64,000 nt of DNA from an uncultured Pseudomonadota bacterium (GTDB taxonomy: Bacteria > Pseudomonadota > Alphaproteobacteria > JACZXZ01): assembly GCA_963749075.1 (NCBI GenBank), contig CAVVLJ010000020.1, positions 64,001 through 128,000 of the forward strand, given 5' to 3'. Below are positions 13,678-19,792 of the stretch, piece after piece. The notes beneath the pieces are model-generated. The model searched no databases. It had not been told where the DNA came from and saw nothing but the letters and a program-made list of their open reading frames with translations. Both the position numbers and the translations under genes were made by a program. Each line of letters opens with the position of its first letter. The stretch's first letter is position 1.

Positions 13678-14718
13678 CTAGGTTCGGCGCGGGGCGCTGT
13701 GCGGCGGTGCTGTGGTGTCCCTGAGGATCAGCTCGGCTTCGAGCTCTTGCGATGCGGTGCATGGTTGAGAGTTGATGCAGCCGATCAGATACTCCGCGGC
13801 AAGGCGGCCCATCGCCGCGCAGGGGACCCGCATGGTGGTGAGCGGCGGGATCATGTGGCAGGCGAGATCAAGATCATCGAAGCCGGTGAGCGAAACGCGG
13901 TCCGGGACTTTGATGCCGCTTGCCTGGCATTCGAGGAGTGCACCGATTGCCAGGACATCGTTGCCGCAGATCACCGCGGTCGGCGGCCGTGCCGACCGCA
14001 TGAGCGCGCGCAACGCCGAACGCCCCTCGCCGATCTCGTATGGACGCTCCAGAAGCCGCTCCGGCGGCAGTGCCAAGCCGCGCGCGGCGAGGGCGTCGCG
14101 CACGCCGCCGATGCGCTCGGCGGCGCGGTCGTTGTGGCGCGCGATGCCGGCGATCATGGCGAACTCCCGGTGACCGAGGTCCAGCAGATGCGCCGCGATC
14201 TTCGCCGCCGCCCGGCGGTTGTCGAAGCCGACGCAGGGATGGCCGCCGTCGGCGTCGTAGATCCAGGTGTTGACGTAGGGCACCCTCTTCGCCGCCAGCC
14301 GCTCGTAGAGGGCCGCTTCGTGATCGGCGCCGATGAGCATGATGCCGTCGACTCCGCGCTCGATCAGCGCATCAAGCTCGGCAAGCTCGCGGTCCCGCAC
14401 ATATTCGGTGCTGGCAAGCAAGAGCACGAAACCCGCGGCATTCAGCCGGCGCTGGAGGGCATCGATCCCTTTCGCGAAGATGGCGTTGTCCAGCGTCGGC
14501 ACGATGGCACCCACGGTGTTCGAGCGCCGCGACGCCAGCGCGCGCGCAACGCCGTGCGGCACGTAGCCGAGGCGCGTCACCGCGATCTGCACCCTGGCGC
14601 GCAGCTCCTCGCGCACGTTGCCGGGCCGGTTCAGCACCCGCGAGACGGTCGCCGGCGAGACGCCGGCGGCCTCTGCCACGTCATCGAGCGTGACCGTGCC
14701 GAGAGCTCTTATCTGCAA
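13678..14718 (-). CDS. LacI-family regulator (HpsR-like)
   Basis: TLDDVAEAAGVSPATVSRVLN HTH, ICGNDVLAIG, TGFDD, PPLTT. TTG start after AGGAG is chosen; divergent from the ABC-hpsN operon. Confidence 0.9.
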   Translation of the reverse strand: MQIRALGTVTLDDVAEAAGVSPATVSRVLNRPGNVREELRARVQIAVTRLGYVPHGVARALASRRSNTVGAIVPTLDNAIFAKGIDALQRRLNAAGFVLLLASTEYVRDRELAELDALIERGVDGIMLIGADHEAALYERLAAKRVPYVNTWIYDADGGHPCVGFDNRRAAAKIAAHLLDLGHREFAMIAGIARHNDRAAERIGGVRDALAARGLALPPERLLERPYEIGEGRSALRALMRSARPPTAVICGNDVLAIGALLECQASGIKVPDRVSLTGFDDLDLACHMIPPLTTMRVPCAAMGRLAAEYLIGCINSQPCTASQELEAELILRDTTAPPHSAPRRT

Positions 14719-14827
14719 GCGCTTTCTCCTGGTGCAACCTATGAGGACATATTCTGCCGGATTCGACGCTCGGTTACAACTTACCGTAAAATAAGAGCAA
14801 TGTCCCCCTGAGGGTGCCATAAACCGA

Positions 14828-14882
14828 TTGACAGCCATTTCCCGTCAGGCCCTAATATGCGAAAACCAAGAAAGCGCTTTCT
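14828..14882 (+). promoter_or_regulatory. Sigma70 promoter with LacI-type operator
   Basis: TTGACA at 14828; perfect palindrome AGAAAGCGCTTTCT at 14869-14882. A related site TGCAAGCGCTTTCT at about 14714 overlaps the lacI start. Confidence 0.75.
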
Positions 14883-14909
14883 CAATCGGCGCGCGACGAG
14901 GAATTGCCG

Positions 14910-15701
14910 ATGGCGAGCTCGAACGGTGGTCGCGGCGGCCTCAGACGGTGGCTCGTCGGCGGTGCGACGGTCGCACTCCTCCTTGTCCTCTGGTATGCGC
15001 TGACGACGGCGGCCGGGGTCATCGATCCAGCCCGCTTCCCGCGGCCCTCGGATGTCTGGCAGGCGGCGGAGCAGCTCTCCGGGCGCGGCTATGCCGGGGG
15101 TACTTTGGCCTGGCAAGCCTGGTACAGCTCGCGCCTTGTCATCCTCGGCTTCTTCGTTGCCGCCGGGACGGGCGCGCCGCTCGGTCTTCTCATGGGGACG
15201 AGCCGCCGCGCCGAGGCCTTCATCAACCCCGCTTTTCTCCTCATCCGCCCGATCCCGCCGCTCGCCTGGATTCCGCTTGCCATTCTGTGGTTCGGTCTGG
15301 GCGATCTCGCAAAGATCTTCGTCATCTGGTTCGCCGCATTCGTCCCGGCGCTCATCAATACCTACACCGGGGTGCGCAACGTCGACCGCACGCTGATCGC
15401 CGCCGCGCGCGTCCATGGCGCGTCGAGCTGGCAGGTGCTGACGGACGTCGTCATTCCCGGAGCACTGCCCCTGGTCTTCACCGGCCTGCGCCTGTCGCTG
15501 CAGGCCGCTTGGACCACGCTCGTGGCGGCGGAGCTGGTCGGCGCGTTCTTTGGTCTGGGGCGCGTCCTCATCATCGCGGCGCAGGACATCTATCCCGGCA
15601 TGATAGCCTACGCCATGTTTTGGGTGGCGCTCCTGGGTGCTGCCATGACCGGGGCACTTGCGCTGATCGAGCGCTGGTCGATGCCGTGGCGCGCCGCATG
15701 A
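14910..15701 (+). CDS. NitT/TauT-family ABC permease 1
   Basis: RPIPPLAWIPL..LWFG, EAA-like loop, LVAAELV. Confidence 0.9.
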   Translation: MASSNGGRGGLRRWLVGGATVALLLVLWYALTTAAGVIDPARFPRPSDVWQAAEQLSGRGYAGGTLAWQAWYSSRLVILGFFVAAGTGAPLGLLMGTSRRAEAFINPAFLLIRPIPPLAWIPLAILWFGLGDLAKIFVIWFAAFVPALINTYTGVRNVDRTLIAAARVHGASSWQVLTDVVIPGALPLVFTGLRLSLQAAWTTLVAAELVGAFFGLGRVLIIAAQDIYPGMIAYAMFWVALLGAAMTGALALIERWSMPWRAA

Positions 15702-17345: not shown

Positions 17346-17370
17346 GCAACGCCACTTAAGGGAGGACAAT

Positions 17371-18423
17371 ATGACGATGAAACGCCTCTGGACATGGTTG
17401 ATCCCCGTCATGCTCGGCATTTTCGCCGTCCTGAGCTCGGGAGCGGCTCGCGCGGCGACCGCGATCGGCGTGAGCTATCAGCCGGCGCTCTACTGGTCGG
17501 TTCCATATTTCATCGCGACGGAGAAGGGTTGGTGGGCGGCGATGGGCTTGGCGCCCAATTTCAGCACGTTCCCGGCCGGCGCCCCGCAGGTGGCGGCGGC
17601 ACCGTCCAAATCCTGGGACGTCGGCGGGACCGGATCGGCGCCGGCGGTGCTCGGTGCCGCGCGGTTCAACATCCTCACGATCGGCATCACCAACGACGAG
17701 TCGGCGGCCAACGTCGTCATGGCACGCGCCGCCGAGGCTGCTGCGATCCTCAAGAGCCCGCAAAGCCTCAAGGGCAAGCAGCTGCTGCTTTCGACCAACT
17801 CGACGGGCGAATATGCAGCGCTCGCCTGCCTCGGCAAATGGGGTCTGAAGCCCGCGGACCTCCAGATCGTCAATCTGCAGCAGGCGCAGATCATCTCGGC
17901 ATTCAGCAGCGGCAACGGCACGCTCGCCGGCGTTTGGGCGCCGAACGACTACACGCTCGAGGATCGCGCGAATGCCAAAATCATCTGCACGGGCAAGGAT
18001 GCGGGCGTCGCCGTGCCGGGGACGCTCGTGGTGCGCGCCGATTACGCGAAAAGCAATCCCGACGACGTGGCGCGCTATCTCGCGGTCTACCTGCATTCGG
18101 TCGCGTGGCAGCGCAAGCATCGGCAAGAGACCATCGACCTCATGCGCCGCTTCTATCAGCAGGGCGGCGTCACCATCCCCGACAAGTATCTCGCGCAGGA
18201 GATCGACACGCGTCCCACCTTCACGCTCGACGAGCAGCTCAAGATCATGGCGCGCACCGCGGGGCCGTCCACGGTCGATGGCTGGTACCAGAAGCTCGGC
18301 GCCTATTTGAAGTCGACCGGGACGGTGAGCGAGCCGCCGCCGCCGGCCTCCTTCATCACCGACGAATTCATGAAGAAGGTGGCCGCCGACCCGAAACTGA
18401 AAGCCTTCGCCAACGACGAATAG
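17371..18423 (+). CDS. ABC substrate-binding protein (SsuA/TauA/NMT1-like)
   Basis: Signal peptide, GGAGG RBS, operon position, F..GAPQV and GVWAP motifs. Confidence 0.85.
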
Positions 18424-18496
18424 AGGCCGAGGTGCAGCGGCGCGGGGCAACCCGCGCCCCGCACGCTTTCTCCTCAATGCGGGGAGCGATGAGCCC

Positions 18497-19792
18497 ATGA
18501 GGGTGCAGTATCTCAAGAAGGCGACGCGGACGCCGACGACCGGGCAAGAGGAGACCCGGGATGTGGTCGCCCGGATGCTGCGCGAGATCGAGGAGGGCGG
18601 CGAGCCGGCGGTCCGCGGCCATGCCGAGCGCCTGGACAAGTGGACCGGCGAGTTCGTCGTCGCTCCCGCCGAGCTCGCCGAAGCCGAGCGCCAACTCTCT
18701 CCTCTGACAAAGGAGGACATCCGCTTCAGCTACGCGCAGGTGCGGCGGTTTGCCCAGGCGCAGCGCGACAGCATGGCGGAGTTCTCCCTCGAGCTCTTGC
18801 CCGGATTGACCGCGGGTCAGCGCCTCGTCCCGGTCGAGGTGGCCGGATGCTATGTCCCGGGCGGCCGCTTCGCCCATATCGCATCCGCCATCATGAGCGT
18901 GACGACGGCGAAGGCGGCGGGCGTTCCCCGGGTGGTCGCCTGCTCGCCCTCGCACCAGGGACGCGGCATTCATCCGGCGATCCTCTATGCGCTCAAAATT
19001 TGCGGTGCGGATGCCATCCTGACGCTCGGCGGCGTGCAGGCGATTGCGGCGCTGGCCTTCGGTCTTTTCACGGGCAAGCCCGCCGACATCATCGTCGGTC
19101 CCGGCAACAAGTATGTGGCCGAAGCGAAGCGTCTGCTCTTCGGCCGCGTCGGCATCGACGTCTTCGCCGGCCCCACGGAGATACTGGTCATCGCCGACGA
19201 GGGCGCGGATGCGGCACTCGTGGCATCCGACCTCGTGGGCCAGGCGGAGCACGGCACGGACTCGCCGGCGATCCTGGTGACGACCTCGCGCTGCCTTGCC
19301 GAGACCGTGCTGGAGCTCGTACCCCGGGCCGCGGCGCGCCTCCCCGCCGGCAATGCCGCGGCGGAGGCGTGGCGCGAGTGCGGCGAGGTGATCCTCTGCG
19401 CGGACCGCGGCGCCGCCGCGGAGGTGAGCGACCAATACGCGCCCGAGCATCTCGAGGTGCACGCCGCGGATCTTGACTGGTGGCTCGGCCGCTTGCGCAA
19501 TTACGGCTCGCTCTTCCTCGGCGAGGAGACCACGGTGGCATTCGGCGACAAGGCGTCGGGCCCCAATCACATCCTGCCGACCAAGCGGGCGGCACGCTAC
19601 AGCGGCGGCCTGAGCGTGGGAAAGTTCCTCAAGGTGCTGACCTGGCAGCGCATGACGCGCGAGGCGACGGCCGAGATCGCCACGGTGACGGCACGCCTCT
19701 CCCGCATGGAGGGCATGGAGGCTCACGCGCGGACGGCCGACGATCGCCTGCGCAAGTATTTTTCCGACCGGGATTTCCGCACGGTTCCTTGA
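18497..19792 (+). CDS. hpsN: HisD-paralog, probable sulfopropanediol (DHPS) 3-dehydrogenase
   Basis: HisD fold motifs ([26 protein letters not shown]), plus an N-terminus YLKKA and C-terminus [34 protein letters not shown] that I recall as HpsN-type. Confidence 0.8.

Follow-up and report, generated by a model that had tools for sequence, protein, structure and literature searches.

Gene content of the locus

The 64-kb window analyzed here is the whole stretch of DNA (all coordinates are positions in it unless a contig or locus is named) and belongs to a 5.49-Mb genome (G000). Between 13678 and 19792 it carries a gene for a LacI-family regulator and, divergent from it, a five-gene operon for the two permeases, ATPase and substrate-binding protein of an ATP-binding cassette (ABC) importer and for a paralogue of histidinol dehydrogenase (HisD). 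An earlier interpretation made without database searches (the sequence-only reading) had proposed that the paralogue resembles HpsN, the dehydrogenase acting on DHPS (2,3-dihydroxypropane-1-sulfonate), and that the importer supplies it with DHPS or another organosulfonate. Family scans recovered all of the genes in the proposed order, and the outer limits given for the locus are exact: 13678 falls at the stop of the regulator gene and 19792 at that of the HisD paralogue. The G+C content of the window is approximately 69%, so that plain lists of open reading frames (ORFs) are full of false frames; the gene map was drawn from family scans and inspection of start codons. The six genes are as follows.

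13678-14718, minus strand: hpsR-like LacI-family regulator (LacI helix-turn-helix [HTH], 2.3e-17; Peripla_BP_3, 1.9e-35)
14910-15701, plus strand: ABC permease 1, TauC/SsuC-like (BPD_transp_1, 4e-24)
15698-16501, plus strand: ABC permease 2 (BPD_transp_1, 1e-28)
16506-17345, plus strand: ABC ATPase, NitT/TauT type (ABC_tran, 2.1e-29)
17377-18423 (alternative start 17371), plus strand: periplasmic substrate-binding protein, TauA/SsuA fold (NMT1, 4.2e-13)
18497-19792, plus strand: hpsN, DHPS-3-dehydrogenase orthologue (Histidinol_dh, 1.7e-132)

All six are intact open frames with coupled starts. The regulator ORF is open to 14838, with TTG 14718 as the likely start and GTG 14679 as an alternative; that of permease 1 begins at TTG 14904, and its ATG at 14910 is preceded by a GAGGAA motif. 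The start of permease 2 overlaps the stop of permease 1 (ATGA), and the two permeases are paralogues with 35% identity (BLASTP, 8e-43). The binding protein carries a signal peptide. Two long ORFs of the plain list, 15751-16509 and 17394-18500, lie in wrong frames and matched no family; their places are taken by 15698-16501 and 17377-18423, respectively. An Rfam search of the window returned no RNA family.

Identity of the dehydrogenase

Sequence comparison and residue conservation identify the HisD paralogue as a true HpsN orthologue. Its Histidinol_dh (PF00815) match spans positions 4 to 410 of 411. Against all PDB sequences, it scores 598.7 bits with HpsN of Cupriavidus pinatubonensis (8v35) and 483.2 bits with a Ruegeria-type (R)-DHPS dehydrogenase (8wwe), versus only 251.5 bits with its best HisD match (4g07), and it groups with characterized HpsN rather than with biosynthetic HisD, the grouping that the sequence-only reading had named as contrary to its proposal.

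In HpsN a G-R-Y-A/S-H motif stands in place of the G-S-A-P-L of HisD. For the C. pinatubonensis enzyme (CpHpsN), sulfonate contacts are reported for His126 of this motif and for Lys353, roles in catalysis or metal coordination for Glu318, His319 and Asp352, carboxylate contacts for His359 and Ser226, and NAD selection for Asp46 (PMC11382572). In the alignment to 8v35 (PDB chain numbering equals that of PMC11382572 plus 1), the equivalents of Glu318, His319, Asp352, Lys353 (Lys352 in the window HpsN), His359 and Asp46 are all identical, and the motif reads G-R-F-A-H, a conservative change of Tyr to Phe. The other changes, Ser226 to Thr and Phe205 to Tyr, are also conservative. Across the aligned HpsN family, the catalytic, metal, sulfonate-Lys, His359 and Asp46 positions are invariant, as are the motif His and sulfonate Lys in all 72 of the 72 members aligned, which were taken from related loci and set beside the window protein.

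No additional his gene was found among the scanned ORFs of the window. The separate true hisD for which the sequence-only reading had suggested a search is on another contig (C17, 499411-500592 in G000); its product scores 528 bits with TIGR00069, is 38.6% identical to the window HpsN, and reads G-T-A-A-Y over the motif, with Tyr in place of the sulfonate Lys. The window HpsN also exceeds the TIGR00069 hisD cut-off (433 versus 243.8 bits), so that automatic annotation would name it HisD. A role as a second histidinol dehydrogenase, for histidine biosynthesis or histidinol utilization, is nevertheless extremely improbable: the match to HpsN (598 bits) far exceeds that to HisD (251 bits), His stands at a position that is mostly Leu in HisD, and Lys at one that is Tyr in the HisD of the same genome, a better hisD is present elsewhere in that genome, and CpHpsN is reported to be inactive on L-histidinol (PMC11382572).

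ABC importer and binding protein

The importer is a two-permease system of the NitT/TauT type, as proposed, with a binding protein closest to TauA and SsuA in both sequence and fold. The nearest PDB sequences are TauA (1.6e-15) and SsuA (1.6e-12), and a profile from 30 orthologues raises the TauA match to 1.9e-23. An AlphaFold model built on the orthologue alignment has a mean pLDDT (predicted local distance difference test) of 91.6, and every one of its eight top PDB hits from Foldseek is a TauA or SsuA chain, with template-modeling scores of up to 0.73 (query) and 0.86 (target). No component of the importer reaches an NCBIfam equivalog cut-off for TauABC or SsuABC. The best matches of the permeases (SaoP, TauC and SsuC, and also NtrB types) and of the ATPase (SaoA, NtrCD and TauB) are all under cut-off (TauC, 142 versus 342 bits; SsuC, 122 versus 347; TauB type, 224 versus 357), and the NCBIfam scan of the binding protein gave no match.

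[quoted passage not shown] In the profile alignment (TauA chain index plus 21 gives the numbering of PMC6906117), Gln30, Gly61, Gly79 and Thr132 correspond to Q35, G68, G86 and T143 of the binding protein, all invariant in the 30 orthologues, and Asp205 aligns to Gly215, as in SsuA, at a position of moderate alignment confidence. With the sulfonate contacts kept and Asp205 replaced, the aligned sequence suggests a sulfonate-binding protein not tailored to taurine. In Escherichia coli TauABC and SsuABC, which belong to the same transporter family, the binding proteins have this fold too and anchor the sulfonate with the same Gln, Gly, Gly and Thr. The window system differs in having two distinct permease genes, a binding protein 20 to 24% identical to theirs, components that all score under the equivalog cut-offs, Gly in place of TauA Asp205, a LacI-type catabolic regulator and an adjoining dehydrogenase gene. 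The binding-protein family comprises >2,100 database clusters at an E value of ≤1e-40, and the names of the best 120 of these are generic (“nitrate/sulfonate/bicarbonate” or NitT/TauT).

Linkage of the ABC system and hpsN in other genomes

Conserved gene order links the importer to hpsN well beyond the window. Among the 80 best loci fetched with HpsN (one genome per species; neighbors assigned by tblastn at fixed thresholds), 31 contain an orthologue of the ABC binding protein: 27 of these also have hpsO and hpsP, three have hpsO only, and one ends inside hpsN. The other 49 have a transporter of the tripartite ATP-independent periplasmic (TRAP) kind (27 loci), a tripartite tricarboxylate transporter (TTT) receptor (two loci) or no transporter that could be seen (20 loci, many of them on short contigs). 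In most ABC-hpsNOP loci, the ABC system is the sole transporter of the cluster. The usual order is the regulator and, divergently, permease-permease-ATPase-binding protein-hpsN-hpsO-hpsP (e.g., Methylobacterium L015 and L017 and Microvirga L022); in a second order, hpsN-hpsO-hpsP precede the ATPase, binding-protein and permease genes. Culturable carriers are represented among the loci, examples being Bosea sp. Root483D1 and strains of Methylobacterium.

Linkage is also apparent in the converse set of 80 loci, fetched with the binding-protein alignment, in which hpsN (counted at ≥55% identity) is present in 58. Sixteen of the 22 loci without it end where hpsN would lie, two of these beginning with hpsO, and hpsN is therefore present in 58 of 64 informative loci. 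The ABC-hpsN operon described in the sequence-only reading thus stands, but it represents a widespread cluster type rather than a peculiarity of this genome, and as such clusters normally include hpsOP, the minimal form seen in the window is a rarer derived state.

Two betaproteobacterial loci, L012 (13104-18631) and L042, have a second, paralogous ABC set beside the ABC-hpsNOP cluster, with a binding protein 43 to 44% identical to that of the window and its own genes for a LacI regulator, a short-chain dehydrogenase/reductase (SDR) and a beta-hydroxyacid dehydrogenase.

Regulator and operator

The region between the regulator and the operon contains the palindrome noted in the sequence-only reading, and three sites were distinguished.

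14828-14858, plus strand: promoter-like site, TTGACA-19 nt-TAATAT, read by eye
14869-14882: predicted operator in the divergent region (190 nt), AGAAAGCGCTTTCT, a palindrome perfect over 14 bp
14714-14727: second, imperfect operator-like site, TGCAAGCGCTTTCT (12/14), where the regulator gene has its 5' end

The distance from the -10-like hexamer downstream to the palindrome is 11 nt; an automatic promoter scan, restricted to spacers of 16 to 18 nt, gave a weaker site at 14763-14792 instead. Allowing ≤2 mismatches, the palindrome occurs twice in the window versus 0.16 times expected, and only one of 100 shuffles reached two occurrences. Its 12-nt core, GAAAGCGCTTTC, is found in perfect form just once in the genome and, at ≤1 mismatch, in 19 of the 80 hpsN loci, with the regulator on one side of it and the hps genes on the other wherever its position was checked. 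LacI orthologues (≥40% identity) are present in 32 of the 80 hpsN loci, with ABC, TRAP and TTT types alike. The regulator combines a LacI HTH with a periplasmic-binding-like sensor and adjoins the hps genes, as expected of HpsR, which is listed as a LacI-family regulator in Ruegeria pomeroyi (PMC4334477); its effector and DNA binding are putative.

Absence of hpsO and hpsP

HpsO (an SDR) and HpsP (a zinc-dependent alcohol dehydrogenase [ADH]) form the DHPS racemase pair. The gene after hpsN in the window encodes a TacA-like antitoxin rather than HpsO, and no remnant of hpsO or hpsP was found downstream. Genome-wide, the best HpsO-like match is 45.6% identical and the best HpsP-like match 29%, compared with 57 to 100% and ≥50%, respectively, for related loci with the same reference set. 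The operon is therefore minimal, as had been suggested, with hpsO and hpsP not found at the locus or, by the thresholds used, in the genome. The closest relative, L194 (binding protein 86% and HpsN 81% identical), also lacks hpsOP, its hpsN being followed by a convergent chemoreceptor gene; L198, L207, L260 and L269 are likewise without hpsO and hpsP, and L199 has only a divergent ADH-like gene. The genome search that had been recommended for hpsOP, suyAB and slcD or comC yielded no recognizable copy of any of them. A canonical hpsNOP pathway is consequently not apparent, as neither hpsO nor hpsP lies near hpsN and no route for sulfolactate desulfonation was found.

Proposed function and alternatives

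The operon is likely to be an HpsR-controlled module for ABC-type uptake of DHPS and its oxidation to sulfolactate, restricted to R-DHPS, with the sulfolactate probably excreted or handled otherwise. As long as inducer is lacking, the LacI-type repressor would occupy the palindrome, which lies immediately downstream of the promoter, and probably also the second site, at the gene for the repressor itself; transcription of the five-gene operon would follow once inducer is present. The periplasmic TauA/SsuA-like protein is predicted to bind the sulfonate and deliver it to a heterodimeric permease pair with a single ATPase. Cytoplasmic HpsN, with Zn and NAD, would then convert R-DHPS to R-sulfolactate, a four-electron oxidation yielding 2 NADH. 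Because the genome has no recognizable HpsO/HpsP pair, only the R enantiomer should be used, and S-DHPS would be left; CpHpsN is reported to be strictly R selective (PMC11382572). Because no sulfolactate-cleaving route is recognizable, the product would probably be excreted or processed by another enzyme, and a precedent for such excretion is Pseudomonas putida SQ1 on sulfoquinovose (PMC13436972).

Several observations weigh against this proposal. With no recognizable sulfolactate route, the operon confers no evident benefit. Xsc is under its cut-off in the genome (269 versus 676 bits), no CuyA-type match is present (26.6 versus 289 bits; CuyB and CuyC were not searched genome-wide), and the best SlcD-like FAD oxidase match, of the kind that follows hpsN in some loci, is 25 to 31% identical. 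Candidates for three further functions were rejected: PF04295 matches are only about 28 to 30% identical to the SuyB of hps loci, two split thiamine diphosphate (ThDP) decarboxylase pairs are under the sulfopyruvate decarboxylase (ComDE) cut-offs, and the sole Ldh_2 protein is of the YbiC type and fits a malate/lactate/ureidoglycolate dehydrogenase model rather than that of sulfolactate dehydrogenase (ComC). The assembly is incomplete (96.3% complete, 5.2% contamination), so that genes not found could be unassembled, and these absences are to be read as “not found” rather than as proven.

The same proposal is weakened by the six of 64 informative binding-protein loci that are without hpsN. In L200, L201 and L204, a beta-hydroxyacid dehydrogenase gene comes after that of the binding protein. 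On the opposite strand of L208 are genes for an acyl-CoA synthetase and an enoyl-CoA hydratase; L230 has a LysR regulator and TauE-type exporter, and L250 a LysR regulator and enoyl-CoA hydratase. In a binding-protein tree from a quick maximum-likelihood search, L200, L201, L204 and L208 (with the truncated L222) form a supported clade among hpsN-linked proteins, nested in a 13-row clade that includes the window protein, and the binding-protein family is therefore not tied only to hpsN. The window protein itself pairs with that of L194 (a Stellaceae metagenome-assembled genome), followed by L195, which has hpsNOP. An invariant Glu108 of the binding protein also sits three columns from the amine-binding Glu106 position of TauA in the profile alignment. 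Finally, the HpsN of Bilophila sp. 4_1_30, which shares 55% identity and reportedly the same substrate-binding residues with CpHpsN, is reported to be most active on L-cysteinolate and less so on R-DHPS (PMC12814064), so that the substrate cannot be read from sequence alone.

DHPS is accordingly the likeliest predicted substrate of the window HpsN but not the only candidate. L-Cysteinolate, or a different 2-substituted 3-hydroxypropanesulfonate, would be the chief alternative, imported by the ABC system and oxidized by HpsN to cysteate. HpsN enzymes can also oxidize L-cysteinolate (PMC12814064), CpHpsN is reported to bind L-cysteate (PMC11382572), Glu108 lies near the column of a residue that binds the amine in TauA, and the DHPS-specific companions hpsOP are gone from this operon. 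Against this, hpsO is present in 30 of the 31 ABC-type hpsN loci, with hpsP also in 27, and the racemase pair does not consist of cysteinolate genes. No DegT/CuyC-type or Asp/Glu-racemase protein was found among the recurrent neighbor families scanned, the CuyA-type lyase was not found in the genome (CuyB and CuyC not being searched), and Gly replaces the amine-binding Asp205 of TauA. Use of cysteinolate is consequently unlikely. Import of some other sulfonate (sulfolactate, taurine, isethionate or alkanesulfonates) by a system merely co-located with hpsN is more doubtful still. TauA/SsuA family members are reported to bind several sulfonates (PMC6906117), and such import would suit both the subclade in which close relatives of the binding protein are paired with a beta-hydroxyacid dehydrogenase, not with hpsN, and the exporter and LysR regulator of L230. 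It fits poorly with the presence of hpsN in 58 of 64 informative loci, with the ABC system being the sole transporter in most ABC-hpsNOP loci and sharing an HpsR-type regulator and operator with them, with LacI-type control rather than that of a sulfur starvation system, with the loss of Asp205 and with scores under the TauABC/SsuABC equivalog cut-offs for all components.

A different objection concerns not the substrate but whether the operon serves its host at all, as it might be the incomplete remnant of an acquired ABC-hpsNOP cluster that has lost hpsOP, never had a desulfonation route and brings little or no benefit. The operon lies in an 8.9-kb islet that is not present at this site in the same-genus genome G004, toxin-antitoxin modules are found on both of its flanks, and HpsN was detected at an E value of ≤1e-100 in none of five same-genus and none of five other same-family genomes (completeness, 79 to 100%). 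Canonical relatives have hpsOP, and no sulfolactate pathway was found in the genome. Decay is, however, improbable for six intact frames with coupled starts, a perfect operator and an HpsN in which every functional residue checked is kept. L194 and four more distant loci share the hpsOP-less end, indicating that the minimal form persists in several lineages.

The rejected candidates have contexts of their own. One PF04295 match, on C17, is a fused 513-amino-acid (aa) UxaA-type gene beside major facilitator superfamily (MFS) and SDR genes, a sugar-acid-like context. The other, a lone UxaA-like gene on C20 (G000:C20:236515-237786, equivalent to L093:10516-11787), was rejected as SuyAB; its product is 28% identical to SuyB and without a SAF-domain partner, and the gene directly follows those for a binding protein and two permeases of an amino-acid-type ABC system, with an LctP permease nearby. 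The ThDP pairs, at G000:C20:213332-214511 and G000:C17:1024594-1025727, are sulfopyruvate/phosphonopyruvate decarboxylase-like; the C20 beta subunit fits the uncharacterized PRK06163 model, and genes for an FAD oxidoreductase and for a PhyH-like dioxygenase lie beside its own. Toward the end of the window, a GntR regulator resembles suyAB-linked regulators, with no adjoining suyAB. Among the hpsN-less loci, the dehydrogenase found in place of HpsN in a Xanthobacteraceae-like subclade is of the HIBADH type (L200:9179-10066, L201:3678-4565 and L204:8633-9484), the binding proteins are 67 to 69% identical to that of the window, and the unit may be a different C3-sulfonate or hydroxyacid module.

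Relation to known DHPS systems

The operon extends the known DHPS pathway and is not a new one; ABC uptake followed by oxidation to sulfolactate remains its most likely function. The pathway enzyme and the type of regulator are known. The hpsRNOUP-suyAB cluster of C. pinatubonensis JMP134 likewise combines an HpsR regulator with hpsN, and its HpsN (structures 8v35, 8v36 and 8v37) is about two-thirds identical, by eye, to that of the window (598 bits), with the catalytic, zinc, NAD and sulfonate residues kept. It differs in uptake, which proceeds through the MFS transporter HpsU rather than a binding-protein-dependent ABC importer with two permeases, and in having hpsO, hpsP and suyAB, none of which was found at the window locus or in its genome. 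In the hpsR-hpsKLM-hpsNOP-slcD cluster of R. pomeroyi DSS-3, a LacI-family HpsR gene also lies upstream of transporter genes followed by hpsN (PMC4334477), and uptake also depends on a periplasmic binding protein. There the binding protein is HpsK, of the TRAP DctP family, acting with a secondary transporter (PMC13335735), whereas that of the window has the TauA/SsuA fold and serves an ATP-driven system; hpsOP and slcD are present in R. pomeroyi and were not found here. The hpsN-cuyCAB D-cysteinolate cluster of Bilophila sp. 4_1_30 shares an HpsN-family dehydrogenase acting on a 3-hydroxypropanesulfonate, but the reported partners are CuyC, CuyB and CuyA (PMC12814064); no CuyA-type protein was found here, CuyB and CuyC lying outside the search.

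The statement in the sequence-only reading that characterized clusters take up DHPS by TRAP (HpsKLM) or MFS (HpsU) transporters agrees with the literature examined, in which no others are named. A 2026 Chem Sci study treats DHPS uptake as TRAP mediated in its accessible text (PMC13335735). An analysis of HpsN homologues used hpsOP nearby as a criterion, covering 272 of 1,000, and its main text, as far as available, is without transporters (PMC11382572). No ABC-type DHPS importer appears in the accessible parts of these two papers, PMC11131964, PMC13436972 or bioRxiv 10.1101/2024.12.10.627767, and none was found in the searchable literature, from which supplements and Mayer et al. 2010 fall outside.

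In the organic sulfur cycle, DHPS, derived from algae and from bacterial breakdown of the plant sulfolipid sugar, is a major currency. If the ABC system carries DHPS, a large and generically annotated transporter family gains a function, and surveys that count DHPS users by TRAP genes, or that require hpsOP beside hpsN, miss many organisms. The hpsOP-less form would further predict enantiomer-selective use of DHPS and release of sulfolactate. A broader scheme is tentative and, taken as a whole, somewhat doubtful: TauA/SsuA-fold ABC importers might constitute a third, undescribed class of DHPS transporter, and perhaps the predominant one among Alpha- and Betaproteobacteria of soil and fresh water, with the hpsOP-less form converting R-DHPS and excreting sulfolactate for others to mineralize.

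Genomic islet and neighboring genes

The operon is horizontally acquired and lies in an islet with the following limits and flanking genes.

12559-21443: islet, 8.9 kb, not present at the same site in the same-genus genome G004
12643-13077, plus strand: Xre-like antitoxin, left islet edge (Xre-like-HTH, 1.2e-12; Xre_MbcA_ParS_C, 9.9e-12)
13181-13534, plus strand: RES-domain toxin, left islet edge (RES, 4e-15)
19841/19910-20161, plus strand: TacA-like antitoxin (TacA1, 7.9e-23)
20216-20899, plus strand: GNAT (TacT-like) frame (Acetyltransf_1, 2.7e-7)
20667-21071, minus strand: PIN toxin, right islet edge (PIN, 3.8e-8)
21071-21331, minus strand: Phd/YefM antitoxin, right islet edge (PhdYeFM_antitox, 1.9e-11)

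Contig C117 of G004 aligns to both sides of the islet at 77 to 78% DNA identity: its positions 1-1641 match window positions 23080-21444 (addA-trx) and 1836-5367 match 12558-9087 (AraC-DUF2000-leuA). As only approximately 195 nt separate the two blocks in G004, the 8.9 kb between them in the window is an insertion relative to that genome. The islet consists, in order, of the Xre/RES pair, the six hps genes, the TacA/GNAT pair and the PIN/Phd pair, and the G+C content at third codon positions of its genes is 0.82 to 0.87, versus 0.90 to 0.96 for leuA, accD, addA and ahcY. No integrase gene was seen in the islet, and its borders show no direct repeats, only an 8-nt inverted match. An ATG at 20158 overlaps the tacA stop but is off the GNAT frame, its product being Arg/Ala rich and nonsense-looking; the GNAT toxin gene may be frameshifted or internally started.

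Several features outside the islet were also noted. An element at 8989-9064 matches the G004 spacer (C117, 1756-1820) in both orientations and looks like a small palindromic intergenic repeat. The 560-aa LeuA-type isopropylmalate synthase encoded at 9114-10796 has a counterpart at an E value of ≤1e-100 in only one of five same-genus genomes (G004, 82%); the gene could be an accessory paralogue, or the other genomes could carry it in regions that were not assembled. In the region 35440-42142, an ORF-poor stretch of low G+C content (0.49 at 38 to 40 kb) separates a 233-aa C-terminal fragment of a phosphoenolpyruvate-utilizing enzyme (36546-37247) from a full-length 578-aa PtsP/enzyme I-like gene (40406-42142). 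With a second LacI paralogue, truncated in its HTH, at 35440-36414, this region looks like an insertion with partial duplication.

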